A stretch of 55,916 nucleotides of DNA, taken from an uncultured Candidatus Bathyarchaeia archaeon. Its GTDB lineage: Archaea; Thermoproteota; Bathyarchaeia; 40CM-2-53-6; CAYOZM01. The notes beneath the pieces are model-generated. The model made no database searches and had not been told where the DNA came from. It saw only the letters and a list, made by a program, of their open reading frames with translations. Below are positions 2,048 to 31,740 of the stretch, one piece after another. Each line of letters starts with the position of its first letter. Within the stretch, counting starts at the first letter, position 1. The stretch lies in the NCBI GenBank assembly GCA_964408475.1, contig CAYOZM010000001.1:1-55916 (forward strand), in the 5' to 3' direction. The position numbers and the translations under genes are program-made.

Positions 2048-3298
2048 ATGAATCCCTTCGATTTGATCGCCCTTTCATCCAGCGCCCTTAAAGAACGGAA
2101 ACTCAGGGCAGCGCTGACCATAGCCATGGTCGTTATAGGGGCCGGGTTGATAACCGCATTGAACGGGATGACCACCGGGATGCTCCAGTACATGGTCGGG
2201 CAGTTCAGCACTCTAGGTGCAAATGTGATAATTGTTCAGCCAGCGTCGTCATCGTTCAGAATGAGTGAACCAGTGCGCATGACTCTTGAACGCTTGCCCA
2301 ATGTTAAGGATGCCGCTCTCTTCATACAGCAGACTGCAAAGATACAATCCGGCGGTAAGACAAAAGCTTCTATAGTGGTAGGAATAGACCAGACCAAGCT
2401 GACACTAATCTTCCCAGCCATAGAACTGGATCGGGGGAATTTCGTTCCACCACACGACTCGATTGGCATACTCTTAGGCAACAGAATAGCTAATCCCACC
2501 GACATGTCAGTCCCATTCGCTCAATATGGCCAGTCGGTTACGATCGAATACAGCTACCTGGAAGGCCAAAAGATGATGACCGCGAAAAGAAGCTTTCGTG
2601 TAGAGGGCATTCTTGCATACATGGGCACATCAGCGATGTTCATTCCGGTCGACATGATGGCATCGATCTCCCTGGCCGCAGCCAACTCCTTGTTCAAGAG
2701 AGGGGGCGGATACGATGGAGTATTCGTCATAGCCAATTCACAAGATCTTGTTGAAGGCATCATGAAGCAGATTGGCAACATCTATGGCACAAGCGTTCAG
2801 ACGCTCTCGGCGAAGTCTATCATCCAGATTGTTCAAAACGTCTTGAGCATGTTTCAACTCTTCATGGGAGGCATAGCAGCTGTGTCTCTAGTGGTGGCTT
2901 CAGTAGGCATTTTAGCAGGCCTCTATACGTCCGTGATGGAGAGGACTAGAGAGATAGGCGTTCTAAAAGCGCTTGGGTTCAAGAACTGGATGATCCTTAT
3001 GCTCTTCCTAAACGAAGCAGTCTTGATAGGGGCTATCGGAGGAGCTATCGGAGACGCTGTCGGAGTAGTTCTCGGTCACGGGATGGCTGTATTAGCTGGA
3101 CAGGTGAGAGGAAGCTTCACACAACAGATTCCTGTGGAACAAGGTCCAGGAGCCATCGGCTACATCGGTCCAATCTTCCCTCTTGACGCTTTTGTCACGG
3201 TATGGCTGTTCTCTGTAGCGCTAAGCGTTTTCGCAGGGGTCTATCCTGCCTGGAGGGCGTCCAGACTCGACCCGGTGGTTGCTCTTCGCAAAGAATGA
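2048..3298 (+). CDS. ABC transporter permease, MacB/FtsX type
   Basis: One N-terminal TM, a large extracytoplasmic domain, three C-terminal TMs, and the FtsX-type tail YPAWRASRLDPVVALRKE. Confidence 0.85.
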   Translation: MNPFDLIALSSSALKERKLRAALTIAMVVIGAGLITALNGMTTGMLQYMVGQFSTLGANVIIVQPASSSFRMSEPVRMTLERLPNVKDAALFIQQTAKIQSGGKTKASIVVGIDQTKLTLIFPAIELDRGNFVPPHDSIGILLGNRIANPTDMSVPFAQYGQSVTIEYSYLEGQKMMTAKRSFRVEGILAYMGTSAMFIPVDMMASISLAAANSLFKRGGGYDGVFVIANSQDLVEGIMKQIGNIYGTSVQTLSAKSIIQIVQNVLSMFQLFMGGIAAVSLVVASVGILAGLYTSVMERTREIGVLKALGFKNWMILMLFLNEAVLIGAIGGAIGDAVGVVLGHGMAVLAGQVRGSFTQQIPVEQGPGAIGYIGPIFPLDAFVTVWLFSVALSVFAGVYPAWRASRLDPVVALRKE

Positions 3299-26842: not shown

Positions 26843-27769
26843 CTAGATATTGAGTTTGAGAGTCTCCTTCAATCCCTTGTACCGGTTTCTAACAGTAACC
26901 TCAGTGACATTCGCCACTTCAGCGATTTCTTTCTGGGTTTTCTTCTCTCCTTCGAGTACGCAAGCGACATATAGGGCCGCTGCAGCCAGCCCCATGGGGT
27001 CCTTTCCTGCGACTATGCCCTTCTTTCGTACCTCCTTAAGGATCTTGATCCCTCTTCTCTGCGTTTGCATTGTTATACCTACCTTCGTTGCTATCTTCGA
27101 GACGCACCTAACCGGATCCTCAACCGGCATCCGCATATCAAGTTCACGCAGAAGCAGCCTGTAACACCTTGCCACATCCTTCTTCCTGATTCTGCTGGCT
27201 GCCGCTACTTCTTTCAATGTTCGAGGGGTCTCAGATGATCTGCAAGCTGCGTATAGAGAGGCCGCTGCTATCGCGACTATTGATCTTCCTCTCACGAGCC
27301 CGCTATCCAGTGCTTTACGATAGATTATCGCAGCTCTCTCCTTTACAGGCGCAGGAATATGGAGTCTATCGGTCAGTCGATCTAGCTCTGCCATGGCTTG
27401 AGCCAGGTTTCTGTCTACTGAGGAGTGAACTCTAGTTCTGATCTGCCACTTTCTAAGCCTCAGCATCTCAAGCCTTGTAGCCAGAGGAAGCTGTCTTCCG
27501 TAAGCATCTCGATTCACGCGATCTATGACTGTTGAAAGACCTTTGTCATGAATTGAATATGAAATAGGGATACCGACCCGACCTCTCTCTTCCTTCTCCT
27601 CCTTCGTGAACGCTCTCCATTCCGGTCCACGGTTCATCGCGTGCTCGCTCAAGACGAGCCCGCAATCTTGGCAGATGATCTCGCCTAGATCGTAATCCTC
27701 AACGAGGTTGTCACTGCCACACTCGGGGCAGTTTGTGACTCTTTCAGACCTCTTTCCCGATGACGCCAT
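26843..27769 (-). CDS. tfb: Transcription initiation factor IIB (TFB)
   Basis: N-terminal zinc ribbon CPECGS...CQDCGLV, B-finger/linker, two cyclin-fold repeats, and a C-terminal HTH (IAEVANVTEVTVRNRYK). Confidence 0.95.
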   Translation of the reverse strand: MASSGKRSERVTNCPECGSDNLVEDYDLGEIICQDCGLVLSEHAMNRGPEWRAFTKEEKEERGRVGIPISYSIHDKGLSTVIDRVNRDAYGRQLPLATRLEMLRLRKWQIRTRVHSSVDRNLAQAMAELDRLTDRLHIPAPVKERAAIIYRKALDSGLVRGRSIVAIAAASLYAACRSSETPRTLKEVAAASRIRKKDVARCYRLLLRELDMRMPVEDPVRCVSKIATKVGITMQTQRRGIKILKEVRKKGIVAGKDPMGLAAAALYVACVLEGEKKTQKEIAEVANVTEVTVRNRYKGLKETLKLNI

Positions 27770-28046
27770 TTTCTTATCCTCTACTCAATGGAGCAATCTA
27801 AGCCATCATCAAACGACAAATCATCCGAAACCCAGGAGAATCGGAGTCCGTTCGTCTGGCCCAGAGCCAAATCAACGTGGCTCCTTGACTATTTAAGCCT
27901 TTCGGTCGGCATTGAAGCGCAAAGAACTGCCTGCGATCTGCCCTTTCAACTGCATCGATTAAATGATCGGCGGAAACAGCGTAAACTCTTAAAGTCCCTA
28001 ATATCATCACTTAATGGGTTTGGAACGAACCGACACCAAACCACGT

Positions 28047-28178
28047 AGCCCGGTCGTCTAGCGGTCAAAGTGGGCTGAGACACGATCAAGGATAGCGGGC
28101 TCTGGATCCTCCACCGAAGGGAGAAGATACCCGCCGACGGGAGTTCGAACGATCCTTCCGAAAATCTCCCCCGGGCTA
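28047..28178 (+). tRNA. tRNA-Gln (anticodon CUG) with three introns
   Basis: Exons 28047-28068, 28090-28105, 28129-28149 and 28165-28178 join to a 73-nt cloverleaf: AGCCCGG-TC-GTCT-AGCGGTCAA-GGAT-A-GCGGG-CTCTGGA-CCCGC-CGAC-GGGAG-TTCGAAT-CTCCC-CCGGGCT-A. It shows 7/7 acceptor pairs with A1:U72, U8, A14, G18G19, U33, G53 T54 T55 C56, A58 and C61. No CCA is encoded. Confidence 0.85.
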
Positions 28179-28194
28179 CTACAAAGACCGCGGT

Positions 28195-28593
28195 CTAACG
28201 CTTTCTTACCGTGACAGTTCCTGATGCAGAATCCACAATTACGTAGTCGCCATTTGCAATAGCCTTGATCGGATCGGCTTCCAATCTATCAACTAAAGGA
28301 ATACCGGCAAGTACGCATCCGGCCGCGATTATGGGCTCTGTCTCCCTATTTATGATTGCAGCTGGAGCCACTCCGTTCTTCGCCATCGAATAGATCGTAT
28401 AGGACCCAACAGTGCTACCTTTCCCCATCGGAAAAACCAAAATCTTCCGCCTCAACCATTTTCCCTCAAGATCATGGTTCTTCTCGACTACCTTTCCTGT
28501 CGTCGGATCCACGCCGCCAAGAAAGGACAATGGCAGGCTTGTGACGAGTGCCTTTGCAGCAGCTCTCCCGGGAACTAGGAATCGTCCCTTCAT
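28195..28593 (-). CDS. Aconitase X swivel-domain protein (DUF126): phosphomevalonate dehydratase small subunit
   Basis: The DUF126 pattern LSFLGGVDPTTGKV...GKILVFPMGKGSTVGS. ATG at 28593 lies 7 nt after the large-subunit stop. The ORF track extends to TTG 28614. Confidence 0.8.
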   Translation of the reverse strand: MKGRFLVPGRAAAKALVTSLPLSFLGGVDPTTGKVVEKNHDLEGKWLRRKILVFPMGKGSTVGSYTIYSMAKNGVAPAAIINRETEPIIAAGCVLAGIPLVDRLEADPIKAIANGDYVIVDSASGTVTVRKR

Positions 28594-28600
28594 TCTAATT

Positions 28601-29800
28601 TCATTCGACTGCAAATCTCACGCACTCTCCAAACGGCTTCAGAGCCACTTGGACTTTGGACAGGGAAGGAAGATAGTGCGCCGCCTTGCAGGAATTCGTT
28701 AGAATCTGCTCAACGCCCATCTTTTCAAGTGGGGACACCACCATACAAGTGTCTCTAACAATCATACCCCCAGCCCTTACAATAGGAGATATGTACCCGC
28801 GCTTGTCAGCCTCCTCGTAAGTCTTCCTAGAAGTGAAGCACCAAAGCTTTCTCTTAAGCCGTTTTCCACTCACAAGTTTCGCTACCATGCCAAGTTCTTC
28901 TAGACTGCAATGTGGACAGCCTAGACAGACATGTCTTGGTCTTTCGGCAGACGTCAGCTCTTCCTTAACTGACTGTAACTCAGAATTGTTTAACGAAATT
29001 CTTTCGAGAGAATGAAGGTCGCGCTTCCTCACACTAAGACTCTCGGGTGTTGTCCCATCAATATGATAAAGCGCAATCGCTCCTGATGTCGCCATACTAG
29101 CGCCGAGACTTTTCAAGTGGTCTAATTTTCCTTTCGCGTTGATTCCTGTGATGAAAGGCACACAATAACCAAGTCTTCGCCCAAGAGAGTATCCAAGCAG
29201 ACTGAAGTCAAGGTCGCTCTGCAGTTCGCTCTGAACTTTGACCACGTGCGTTGGTCTTCTATTCTCATCAAGGTGAAGCCCATAAAGTGGGGTTCTGCCC
29301 GTTATGGAACTCGCAAGAGCAGTTGGACCTCCTTCCCTATTGGTCCTAGCCCCTAGAACGGAATTCGCGAAAGATATTGCCGATGATTCAGCCCATGCGA
29401 CACTTTCGCCAAACCTAGGTCTATTGCCTACAAAATAGGGGATGCAAGTGCAGGTAGCATACATTCTCATCATGTTGAACACTGAAATGATTCTCAGCTG
29501 TTTACGGGCGAAATCTCGCGGTATTCCCATTCGACGCCATTCTGTCAAGTCCGTTCCAGCAGGGTTGAGCGTTGTCTTTACCATCGCTTCAGCACCTTTC
29601 CTGCACAAATCTTCAAGGAACTCTAACCCGGCCTCGCCGATAGTCTTATACGATACTCCCGACACGTGCACGCTCCTTACTCGGATCATTCTTTCCGCGT
29701 TAAAGATACCGCCGACCGCGACAAGCAGTTTCATCGCTAAGGCTTTCGCTTCGCCGCGTTCCCCTTCGAGCATTGTTTCCTCTTGTCCTGTCAAGAACAA
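28601..29800 (-). CDS. Aconitase X catalytic-domain protein (DUF521): phosphomevalonate dehydratase large subunit
   Basis: N-terminus FLTGQEETMLEGERGE, conserved cysteines (TCIPY, CLGCPHCS) and ~400 aa length typical of DUF521/AcnX. TTG start. Confidence 0.85.
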   Translation of the reverse strand: MFLTGQEETMLEGERGEAKALAMKLLVAVGGIFNAERMIRVRSVHVSGVSYKTIGEAGLEFLEDLCRKGAEAMVKTTLNPAGTDLTEWRRMGIPRDFARKQLRIISVFNMMRMYATCTCIPYFVGNRPRFGESVAWAESSAISFANSVLGARTNREGGPTALASSITGRTPLYGLHLDENRRPTHVVKVQSELQSDLDFSLLGYSLGRRLGYCVPFITGINAKGKLDHLKSLGASMATSGAIALYHIDGTTPESLSVRKRDLHSLERISLNNSELQSVKEELTSAERPRHVCLGCPHCSLEELGMVAKLVSGKRLKRKLWCFTSRKTYEEADKRGYISPIVRAGGMIVRDTCMVVSPLEKMGVEQILTNSCKAAHYLPSLSKVQVALKPFGECVRFAVE

Positions 29801-29825
29801 GCCGATTCAGCCACGACAGTTGCGC

Positions 29826-31136
29826 CTAGTCGCTACTAGGTATAGTAGCCTTCAAAAACTTCTCTTTCGGTTTCAGAAGGCTTCTAGTGGCGTCTACGCC
29901 TACCTTGGTCGTAAGCGCAAGTTCTTGATTCGAGGACGGGTCGAGTGTGGAGCCTCGAGCGTTGGGTATGACGATCAAGTCCTTGTCACCTTGAAATCTT
30001 GTGGCGATTGCCCACTCGACCTCCTGCAGCTTGTCTATGTCTATATCGGTGTCCACTACGACTGCGTGTTTCAGCGAAGGATGGGAAGCAAAGGCAGCCA
30101 GCAAAGCGTTCTTGCCGTCACCTTCGGTCTGCTTCTCTATAGAGATAATGGCGTGAAGCCAACAACATCCGCCGGGCGTAAGCCTTACCCCTTTTACACT
30201 TGGAACGACGGCTCTGACCCCATCGAGGATCTTTGACTCGAAGGGAAGACCCATTAATAACCGATGCTCGGCTCCTCCGGGCAAGAGCGCTTGGTAAACA
30301 TAGTCTTTGCGGTGCATGATGCCAACGACTTGGACAAGAGGCTGTTTTCTAACGATATCGTACGTGCCGGTGATGTCTACAAGGGGCCCTTCAGAGACTT
30401 GTTTTCCTAGAAGTATCTTGCCTTCAAGGACGAGTTCAGCATCGCTAGGAACGCAAGCGTCCACATGCTCGCAAGTTGTGAGTTCTAGACCTTCGTGCAT
30501 AAGGGCGCTTGCGAGTTTGTACTCACTTACCCCGAAAGGAAGGGGCGATGATGCGGCCAACGTAACCGCGGGGTGTATCCCTATCGCTATTCCTATGTCA
30601 AGGCTCTTACTTCCTTGCTCTTGAGCCATCTGGCACAAGCGGTATAGATGGCGTGGAACGATCCTGATAGATAGATGATCCCGGTCAACTACCATCATCC
30701 TGTGAATGGACACGTTCTCGACCCTGTCGTCAAGGCTCTTTGCTGAAACTATTCCTGATGTTATGTACGCGCCTCCGTCTTTCTCATAATGTCGAAGGAT
30801 CGGTATTTGATCAAGTCTCGGCTTTTCTTGAACTTCCTTCACAGGGCCGTCACTAGAAACCTTGGGGTTCGACGGATTTCTCATCGAATTTATAAGAAGA
30901 TCTAAAATCTCATTTTCTACAGCTCCCAGTGCCATAGAAATTCTCTTCCTCGAACCACATATCCCTGAAACCAGTCTGTTGCGATGGCCCCGAACCCTCT
31001 CAAATAAGAGCGCGGGACCAGTATCATGCTTTTTCATAAGAAAAGCCGCTTCGTATCTCGTCGAAACAGGATTTTTTATCTCAAGAAGTTCGTTGTTCCT
31101 TCTCAGTTCTTCGAGAAACCATCTAAGATCACTCAT
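29826..31136 (-). CDS. UbiD-family decarboxylase (anhydromevalonate phosphate decarboxylase candidate)
   Basis: The UbiD N-terminus MSDLRWFLEELRRNNELLEI, full UbiD length, and operon context with AcnX and UbiX. ATG at 31136 follows GGTGA. The ORF track extends to 31196 and would then overlap ubiX. Confidence 0.85.
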   Translation of the reverse strand: MSDLRWFLEELRRNNELLEIKNPVSTRYEAAFLMKKHDTGPALLFERVRGHRNRLVSGICGSRKRISMALGAVENEILDLLINSMRNPSNPKVSSDGPVKEVQEKPRLDQIPILRHYEKDGGAYITSGIVSAKSLDDRVENVSIHRMMVVDRDHLSIRIVPRHLYRLCQMAQEQGSKSLDIGIAIGIHPAVTLAASSPLPFGVSEYKLASALMHEGLELTTCEHVDACVPSDAELVLEGKILLGKQVSEGPLVDITGTYDIVRKQPLVQVVGIMHRKDYVYQALLPGGAEHRLLMGLPFESKILDGVRAVVPSVKGVRLTPGGCCWLHAIISIEKQTEGDGKNALLAAFASHPSLKHAVVVDTDIDIDKLQEVEWAIATRFQGDKDLIVIPNARGSTLDPSSNQELALTTKVGVDATRSLLKPKEKFLKATIPSSD

Positions 31137-31164
31137 GGCGTTCACCAAAACCCTCATGGGAGTC

Positions 31165-31740
31165 TCATTTGCCAGCCAATCCCTTCCACGGCTCATACAG
31201 TTCTTCTTGAAGACCTATATGCGTCGCTATTTTTTCGACAATGAAGTCTACTAGGTCTTCGATGCTCTTGGGTCTGTGATAGAATCCGGGACATGCAGGA
31301 GCTATCAGAACCCCCAATTTCGAGAGCCAAAGCATGTTCCTCAGGTGGACGGCGTTCAAAGGAGTTTCTCGGGGCACCAATACAACCTTCCTCCTTTCCT
31401 TTAGCGCTACATCTACCACACGAAGCAGAAGGTTGTTGGAGTATCCCTGAGCTATAGCTGCTAGGGAGCCCATGGAACAGGGGACGACAGCCACTGCATC
31501 GAATCTCTGTGATCCGCTAGAGATGGGGGCAGCCAGGTCGTCGATCTCATAGTGCTCACTCGCAAGTTCAAACAGATCACCCTTGCTTAAGCCCAATTCG
31601 TGTCTTATGATCGTCTCGGCTGGTCTCGATACAATAACGCAAGTCTCTACATTCTTCCTCGAAAGAAGCTTCAAGAGATTCAAAGCGTAGATAGCGCCAC
31701 TCGCTCCAGTTACGCCAACAACGACTTTCATATCTTTCAC
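31165..31740 (-). CDS. ubiX: Flavin prenyltransferase UbiX
   Basis: VVGVTGASGAIYA N-terminus, VVPCSMGSLAAIAQGYS and LVPRETPL motifs. 191 aa. Confidence 0.9.
   Translation of the reverse strand: MKDMKVVVGVTGASGAIYALNLLKLLSRKNVETCVIVSRPAETIIRHELGLSKGDLFELASEHYEIDDLAAPISSGSQRFDAVAVVPCSMGSLAAIAQGYSNNLLLRVVDVALKERRKVVLVPRETPLNAVHLRNMLWLSKLGVLIAPACPGFYHRPKSIEDLVDFIVEKIATHIGLQEELYEPWKGLAGK

Follow-up and report, generated by a model that had tools for sequence, protein, structure and literature searches.

Background

The canonical intron of archaeal transfer RNA (tRNA) genes lies at position 37/38, and Marck and Grosjean reportedly described it in 2003 as enclosed by a strict bulge-helix-bulge (BHB) motif, hBHBh'. 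Multiple-intron tRNAs of Pyrobaculum, Thermofilum and Caldivirga are said to have been found with SPLITS and SPLITSX by Sugahara et al. in 2007 and 2008 and by Fujishima et al. in 2010. The BHB itself is a 4-bp helix (H) between two 3-nt bulges, with outer helices on the exon side (h) and the intron side (h') (PMC7714728). In Thermoproteales and Thaumarchaeota, tRNA genes with several introns, non-canonical BHB introns included, are well known, and reviews up to 2021 give three introns per tRNA as the maximum (PMC4033280, PMC8450103). In the Asgard archaea Atabeyarchaeia and Freyarchaeia, introns occur in 92-95% of tRNA genes, with several introns in more than half of them; the tables list up to four introns per tRNA gene, including two-intron tRNA-Gln(CTG/TTG), and some of the introns were missed by tRNAscan-SE (Valentin-Alvarado et al. 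2024, PMC11291895). No description of tRNA introns in Bathyarchaeia (Bathyarchaeota) was found in the library of literature searched. Here we analyse a 55,916-nt stretch of DNA of an uncultured Bathyarchaeia archaeon (contig CAYOZM010000001.1), referred to as the window, in which positions 28047-28178 of the plus strand very probably form a functional gene for tRNA-Gln(CUG) that is split by three short BHB introns of the protein-spliced type, at 21/22, 37/38 and 59/60.

Results

Exons, introns and the spliced product

The letters and coordinates of the 132-nt segment agree with an earlier note on this DNA, which had claimed that removal of three named pieces leaves a 73-nt tRNA-Gln(CUG) with an A1:U72 pair. 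The four exons listed in Table 1, when joined, indeed give 73 nt, AGCCCGGTCGTCTAGCGGTCAAGGATAGCGGGCTCTGGACCCGCCGACGGGAGTTCGAATCTCCCCCGGGCTA, which ARAGORN reads as tRNA-Gln(ctg) with a complete cloverleaf. All 21 stem pairs form: the acceptor stem has 7 bp and begins with A1:U72, the D-stem has 4 bp including two G·U pairs, the anticodon stem of 5 bp carries the loop CUCUGGA with the anticodon CUG, and a 4-nt variable loop is followed by a 5-bp T-stem with the T-loop UUCGAAU. The conserved bases U8, A14, G18 G19 and U33 are all present. The identity marks of tRNA-Gln are likewise found in the product, namely the CUG anticodon, A1:U72 and the discriminator A73, and A1, U72 and A73 are shared by 17/17 intron-less homologs in the covariance-model alignment described below. 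Archaeal tRNA-Gln serves as a substrate of the non-discriminating GluRS and of GatDE, and its D-loop is smaller than the one in tRNA-Glu. In archaeal tRNA-Gln, A1-U72 and the D-loop are recognised by GatDE (PMC2943598).

Table 1 Coordinates in the window of the tRNA-Gln(CUG) gene and associated features (the slash within a bulge marks the cut)
Feature	Position	Strand	Length	Description
Exon 1	28047-28068	+	22 nt	tRNA positions 1-21: 5' acceptor strand, U8, C9, 5' D-stem strand, D-loop AGCGGUCAA
Intron 1	28069-28089	+	21 nt	D-loop/D-stem junction, 21/22; H 28063-28066:28084-28087 (GGUC:GAUC); bulges 28067-28069 (AA/A) and 28088-28090 (AA/G); h' 28070-28072:28081-28083 (3 bp)
Exon 2	28090-28105	+	16 nt	Positions 22-37: 3' D-stem strand, A26, 5' anticodon-stem strand, C32 U33, C34 U35 G36, G37
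Intron 2	28106-28128	+	23 nt	Canonical position 37/38; H 28100-28103:28123-28126 (CUCU:GAAG); bulges 28104-28106 (GG/A) and 28127-28129 (AU/A); h' 28107-28110:28119-28122 (4 bp)
Exon 3	28129-28149	+	21 nt	Positions 38-59: A38, 3' anticodon-stem strand, variable loop CGAC, 5' T-stem strand, T-loop UUCGAA
Intron 3	28150-28164	+	15 nt	T-loop, 59/60; H 28144-28147:28159-28162 (UUCG:CGAA); bulges 28148-28150 (AA/C) and 28163-28165 (AA/U); h' 28151-28152:28157-28158 (2 bp)
Exon 4	28165-28178	+	14 nt	Positions 60-73: U60, 3' T-stem strand, 3' acceptor strand, discriminator A73
TATA-like element CTTAAAG	27988-27994	+		About 53-59 nt upstream of the mature 5' end; preceded by AAA at 27983-27985
TFB gene	26843-27769	-		Flanks the tRNA gene
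AcnX small and large subunits, UbiD-family decarboxylase, UbiX	28195-31740	-		Downstream of the tRNA gene

The BHB motifs were anchored on exon junctions fixed independently by homology, with the cut placed after the second base of each bulge. This cutting rule is obeyed at all three junctions, and the three motifs that had been drawn by hand in the earlier note are present as described. The H helix of intron 1 has 4/4 pairs, one of them G·U, and on the 3' side its bulge joins A14-C16 in an internal loop. In intron 2, whose geometry is canonical, 3/4 pairs of H form, including one U·G, and the 5-bp anticodon stem serves as h. Intron 3 has 4/4 pairs in H and the 5-bp T-stem as h; with both outer helices of at least 2 bp it is a strict hBHBh' motif. 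Two of the boundaries can be shifted: that of intron 1 slides leftwards over TCAA by as many as 4 nt with the product unchanged, and that of intron 3 leftwards over AA by 2 nt. The slide over TCAA had been recognised before, together with an assignment of the intron to around 20/21 that does not stand, since the BHB puts it between A21 and G22 (raw 22/23).

Two side observations concern the intron sequences. Introns 2 and 3 (28106-28122 compared with 28150-28162) share a GATCCT(C/T)C...CCGAA core, GGATCCTCCACCGAAGG and CGATCCTTCCGAAAA, which may reflect chance, the constraint of pairing with the exons, or the trace of an intron duplication between the two sites. No copies of the three introns were found outside the orthologous site in the window or in 90 loci, a result that speaks neither for nor against intron transposition, whose signature would be similar introns in other tRNA genes.

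Contiguous homologs read through the exon junctions

These structures raise a key question: do the proposed junctions restore a sequence that exists in nature, or is the cloverleaf a chance artefact, given that three free deletions can make many sequences tRNA-like? In relatives, the corresponding place upstream of TFB is also occupied by a tRNA-Gln gene in divergent orientation. In 21 species this gene is a contiguous, intron-less stretch of 73 nt that is 86-93% identical to the spliced sequence of the window (18 with the anticodon UUG and three, at loci L061, L063 and L067, with CUG), with BLAST E-values down to 9e-25. Furthermore, a metagenome scan for the 31-mer across exon junctions 1 and 2 detected it in 22 contigs, all of which carry uninterrupted tRNA-Gln(CUG) genes of other archaeal lineages; their acceptor and T stems differ from those of the window, and 0/22 come from samples that hold the window species. 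Because both the intron-less orthologs and these contigs read through, the exon junctions proposed here recreate a naturally contiguous sequence.

One additional piece of evidence came from searching the whole window, filters off, with a covariance model whose training set consisted solely of 17 intron-less tRNA-Gln genes. The sole significant match is 28089-28178 on the plus strand (18.2 bits, E = 0.006), so that a model naive to introns finds the gene, a result whose opposite the earlier note had named as grounds for abandoning its claim. The model places insertions of 24 nt in the anticodon loop (intron 2) and of 16 nt in the T-loop (intron 3), aligns bases 28092-28105 of exon 2 to the anticodon arm, and, owing to the D-arm intron, fails to include exon 1.

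The chance explanation draws its strength from the behaviour of the BHB-aware intron-removal solver, whose top solutions for loci L017, L040 and L046 were spurious cloverleaves that ARAGORN called Thr or Gly. That a sequence folds after the removal of pieces is thus weak evidence alone, and it is homology that settles the case. On the real sequence, however, the solver reached a cloverleaf score of 26, the maximum, compared with 12-16 on 40 dinucleotide shuffles, and the covariance-model match requires no choice of introns at all. When the introns were shuffled, they regained their own H and h' in 0.11%, 0.24% and 0.12% of 20,000 trials (introns 1, 2 and 3, respectively), and all three BHBs appeared together in 0/100,000. 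Together with the BLAST matches to contiguous orthologs, the comparative sequence data refute an origin by chance, to which we assign a negligible probability.

Covariation in the tRNA stems and the BHB helices

The alignment used for covariation consists of ten three-intron orthologs, i.e., the window and nine others. In the combined tRNA and BHB structure, 97% of the cells are paired, compared with 41-60% when the partners are slid, and five pairs show compensatory double changes; the observed values were reached by 0/500 shuffles. The compensated pairs belong both to exon stems (12:23 in the D-stem, 27:43 and 29:41 in the anticodon stem, with 27:43 being A:U, G:C or G·U and always paired) and to the BHBs (U:A to C:G in the D-loop H of L057, and one h' pair of the anticodon intron). 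Exon 1 has the same sequence in nine three-intron orthologs and is joined directly to exon 2 in intron-less relatives. The exons and BHB helices of the three-intron orthologs stay paired, and the loops and lengths of the introns drift; intron 3, for example, varies from 12 to 24 nt with H retained. As judged from these sequence comparisons, the gene is under purifying selection. RNAalifold, run on the ten orthologs with no structure supplied, recovered the D-loop and T-loop BHBs exactly.

The same comparisons bear on a second possibility, namely that the gene is real and the D-arm intron is a different one, a 19-nt segment at 28063-28081 that follows raw position 16 and leaves the D-loop AGCACGAUCAA. 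On the crude cloverleaf score of the solver this solution ties at 26, with 3/4 pairs in H, 3 bp in h' and 5 bp in h, and it is compatible with the D-arm pairing of the minimum free energy (MFE) fold, in which 28054-28057 pair with 28082-28085. Its product, however, loses the universally conserved G18 G19, and across this junction all intron-less orthologs and contiguous metagenome tRNA-Gln genes read ...TAGCGGTCAAGG... or ...TAGCGGACAAGC... instead. The BHB at 21/22, which RNAalifold also gives for the ten orthologs, is further backed by L057, L028, L055 and L056 through different, covarying h' helices. In L057, intron 1 has a different h' of 5 bp, and beyond the ten-ortholog alignment the h' of the D-loop intron is clade-specific and always abuts the bulge and H (gug/cac, ggagc/gcucc, gguc/gacc, gugg/cuac). 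We therefore consider the 19-nt intron very improbable and retain the intron at 21/22.

Folding, register and standard tRNA finders

Several results weigh against the gene with three BHB introns and have to be set beside the evidence given above. In stability, the precursor structure with three BHBs falls short of the MFE fold by about 10 kcal/mol (-35.8 to -37.3 vs -46.9), and the stability of the MFE fold itself is no better than that of shuffles (z = -0.17). For the anticodon intron, the single-sequence fold and RNAalifold both favour a register shifted by 1 nt, which gives a wrong product, and the canonical register leaves C34·A unpaired in H. Intron 1 has an exon-side h of 1 bp, so that its motif counts as relaxed (HBh') and falls short of a strict hBHBh'; the 3-nt bulge/helix/3-nt bulge that the earlier note had drawn uniformly holds for all three introns. 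In addition, ARAGORN called no tRNA in the unspliced DNA of the 56-kb window or of the local region with default settings, with -i, or with -i and a lowered threshold (-ps), and a scan of the 56-kb window at the Rfam gathering threshold gave no tRNA match. A further Rfam scan of 27950-28280 at E <= 10 returned no tRNA, the one match being to a long non-coding RNA and spurious. That standard annotation misses such genes had been anticipated in the earlier note.

The T-loop BHB is present in the single-sequence MFE fold. As a guide to the splice sites this fold was nevertheless rejected, given that its anticodon register would remove A38. The canonical register is taken as functional because the shifted one cuts out A38 and because, with the canonical one, H is fully paired in relatives whose intron carries GGAG or GGGG (L055, L031, L017 and L039-L048).

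The mismatch itself is a conserved feature. GAAG opposite CUCU (C34·A at 28102 and 28124 in the window) is kept in all ten orthologs of the window clade, and a U34, as in the UUG anticodon, would pair fully. This hints that a UUG isoacceptor was the source of the intron or of the gene; alternatively, the mismatch is simply tolerated.

Flanking signals and the possibility of a pseudogene

Upstream of the gene, the motif AAAnCTTAAAG recurs about 45-60 nt before the tRNA in ten orthologs (L049, L026, L020, L022, L025, L014, L033, L034, L028 and L012), the flanks being otherwise diverged. Given this conservation and the general features of archaeal promoters, the motif is probably the B recognition element (BRE)/TATA promoter of the tRNA gene, with a short leader. 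At the other end, A73 is followed by CTA (28179-28181), so that CCA is not encoded; L022 also has CTA, and most orthologs encode CCA. Since the gene has CTA, CCA would be added by the CCA-adding enzyme.

Another important question is whether the segment is a decayed tRNA-Gln pseudogene with three insertions that is neither expressed nor spliced. The change of CCA to CTA and the failure of standard tools to find the gene are in keeping with decay, and another tRNA-Gln(CUG) copy is possible, as 56 kb of the genome are in view. However, the exons are intact and all stem pairs form, each insertion has a correctly placed BHB, the upstream promoter-like motif is conserved, and the three-intron arrangement recurs in nine further species, where both the tRNA stems and the BHB helices show compensatory changes. 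At the level of the population, the 132 nt are invariant in 10/10 fetched contigs of the same species despite varying flanks, with a 211-nt flanking stretch differing in eight of them; an identical TFB protein was found on 13 metagenome contigs. An intact intron-less copy elsewhere, which the earlier note had regarded as a possible sign of decay, was not seen either: none of the 22 metagenome matches to the 31-mer has the window's acceptor stem. There is thus very little chance that the segment is a pseudogene. The gene, its exon/intron boundaries, the BHB geometry and the conservation of all these are established directly here, and a functional tRNA-Gln(CUG) gene is the reading that we follow below.

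The leaders of several orthologs contain further features that are not present in the leader of the window. In L012, L022, L028, L029 and L031, the 5' acceptor sequence is duplicated within 30 nt upstream of the tRNA, as GGCCCGG or AGCCCGG, and in L020, L025 and L026 a GC-rich hairpin GCCCGA...TCGGGC, which resembles this sequence, is located within the same distance. They could be leader structures, remnants of intron/exon rearrangement, or chance occurrences.

Intron sets among the orthologs

The intron maps of the orthologs were obtained by splice-aware alignment and the BHB-aware solver, and the spliced products were checked with ARAGORN. The layout of the window is found in nine other species (L049, L026, L020, L022, L025, L014, L033, L034 and L057). 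Other sets of three introns were found in L029 (21/22, 37/38 and 53/54), L028 (10/11, 21/22 and 37/38) and L031 (10/11, 29/30 and 37/38). The soil clade L036-L048 and L039 has introns at 29/30 and 37/38, L052 and L055 at 21/22 and 37/38, and L053 at 10/11 and 37/38, while L056, with the anticodon UUG, has a single intron at 21/22. Among species whose TFB is 67-97% identical to that of the window, a single syntenic tRNA-Gln gene beside TFB thus has 0-4 introns over six positions (10/11, 21/22, 29/30, 37/38, 53/54 and 59/60), and in species with a TFB about 87% identical to that of the window the intron at 37/38 is the sole one in common with it.

The highest number was found in L012 (CAYXJU010000006.1, 5288-5437, minus strand), whose TFB is 87% identical to that of the window. 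Its tRNA-Gln(CUG) gene has four BHB introns, at 10/11 (20 nt), 29/30 (18 nt), 37/38 (20 nt) and 53/54 (19 nt), with 4, 3, 3 and 4 of 4 pairs in H, respectively, and 3-4 bp in h', and the spliced product is a tRNA-Gln according to ARAGORN. The same four positions are occupied in the ortholog L011 (8-143, minus strand), which is cut by the contig end. The idea that four introns are a record was rejected, as four-intron tRNAs are tabulated in the 2024 Asgard data (PMC11291895). Locus L017 (CAVSBL010000002.1, a 2.36-Mb contig, 2200-2354, plus strand) probably also has four introns, at 21/22, 29/30, 37/38 and 53/54. The solver gave no Gln solution for this locus, and a four-intron product built by hand is a tRNA-Gln in ARAGORN. 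At its 29/30 junction only 2/4 pairs of H form and an extra C is left over, an oddity for which nested or stepwise splicing or an assembly error is possible.

Consequences for tRNA annotation

When ARAGORN -i was applied to the multi-intron tRNA-Gln orthologs upstream of TFB, it miscalled those of L036, L038-L040, L043-L048, L053, L055, L056 and L028 as Gly, Asn, Arg, Pro, Glu, Ser or selenocysteine (SeC) tRNAs, giving each of them one large false intron. Such isotype errors are systematic and would pass into the annotations of metagenome-assembled genomes (MAGs). Since ARAGORN and Rfam miss the gene of the window and ARAGORN -i mislabels its orthologs, the tRNA inventories of Bathyarchaeia MAGs probably contain gaps or errors wherever they were made without BHB-aware tools. 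A simple scan of the intergenic gaps of the window for a 7-bp acceptor stem with U8, which is blind to genes with an acceptor-stem intron, gave 64 candidates, none of them tRNA-like except 28047-28178.

Gene neighbourhood and host

On the minus strand, the tRNA gene is flanked by TFB, by genes for the small and large subunits of AcnX and then by UbiD-family and UbiX genes; an aldehyde ferredoxin oxidoreductase (AOR) gene lies upstream. The AcnX and UbiD labels are from Pfam, and UbiX was assigned by eye. This set presumably fits the archaeal modified mevalonate pathway, as phosphomevalonate dehydratase, anhydromevalonate-phosphate decarboxylase and prenyl-FMN synthase.

A TFB scan of GTDB species representatives gave 80 loci with amino-acid identities of 67-97%, all of them on MAG contigs of Bathyarchaeia type and nearly all labelled Bathyarchaeia or Bathyarchaeota. 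On the basis of these loci and of the neighbouring genes, the window belongs to an uncultured Bathyarchaeia archaeon. Three contigs with a TFB 67-86% identical to that of the window were deposited as Methylomirabilota, Acidiferrales and Pirellulales (L015, DATKOK010000086.1; L021, DATIYC010000125.1; and L089, CAZIKS010000267.1, respectively), and they are probably mis-binned Bathyarchaeia contigs.

Discussion

Proposed splicing pathway

For the transcription of the gene, the enzymes involved and the order of the processing events, we infer the following pathway. Transcription would start from the TATA-like element near 27988 and yield a precursor with a leader of about 25-30 nt, in which the introns would pair with exon bases just upstream of them, so that the D, anticodon and T arms would each enclose a BHB independent of the other two. 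At each bulge, the splicing endonuclease of archaea (EndA) would then cut after the second base, six cuts in all. For relaxed or non-canonical BHBs, an EndA of the (alpha-beta)2 or epsilon2 type would be needed. The (alpha-beta)2 form of EndA, found mainly in TACK archaea including Bathyarchaeota, accepts relaxed motifs (PMC7714728; PMC4033280). The four exons would be joined by RtcB, the archaeal tRNA ligase (PMC4090602), the ends trimmed and CCA added enzymatically, and the mature tRNA would carry the A1:U72 pair recognised by GatDE. Because the H helices sequester G18 G19 and U54-G57, the D-loop/T-loop elbow can be built only once introns 1 and 3 are gone, which suggests that splicing precedes the elbow-dependent steps. 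EndA cleavage followed by RtcB ligation would be the most likely mechanism; this route is already known, and no new mechanism is implied.

Comparison with known systems

The kind of gene described here is already well known, and what the present locus adds is an extension of multi-intron tRNA genes to Bathyarchaeia, which are among the most abundant uncultured archaea of sediments and soils. Somewhat short of an even judgement, we tentatively suggest that Bathyarchaeia may be one more lineage, hitherto not described as such, in which BHB introns continue to be gained and lost at a rapid pace. The syntenic orthologs, with their 0-4 introns at six sites, are a good data set for intron turnover. 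If the same is true for other tRNA genes, Bathyarchaeia would offer a dense natural series for the insertion and loss of archaeal tRNA introns, and many tRNA sets of their MAGs, together with the inferences on completeness and codon usage drawn from them, would be wrong without BHB-aware tools.

The canonical 37/38 intron is closely matched by intron 2 of the window, in which positions 32-35 contribute to a 4-nt H between 3-nt bulges, the anticodon stem (5 bp) acts as h, and h' has 4 bp. It differs in that the H of the window clade contains C34·A and a U·G pair (H being perfect in some relatives) and in that two further, non-canonical introns are present in the same gene.

The earlier note had placed multi-intron tRNAs mainly in Thermoproteales and a few other deep archaeal lineages; the kind is indeed known there, but the host of the window belongs to Bathyarchaeia. 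The likeness to Thermoproteales includes up to three short BHB introns per gene, non-canonical D-arm and T-arm sites besides 37/38, relaxed motifs, an (alpha-beta)2 endonuclease, which the host of the window would share, and intron sets that differ between close species (PMC4033280, PMC8450103). The difference lies in the host, as Bathyarchaeia are a mesophilic to moderately thermophilic uncultured class with a G+C content of about 48%. With the Asgard Atabeyarchaeia and Freyarchaeia, the present host has in common that these are uncultured archaea of soil and sediment with multi-intron tRNA genes, although they belong to another phylum and the comparison is made here from the one tRNA gene in view.

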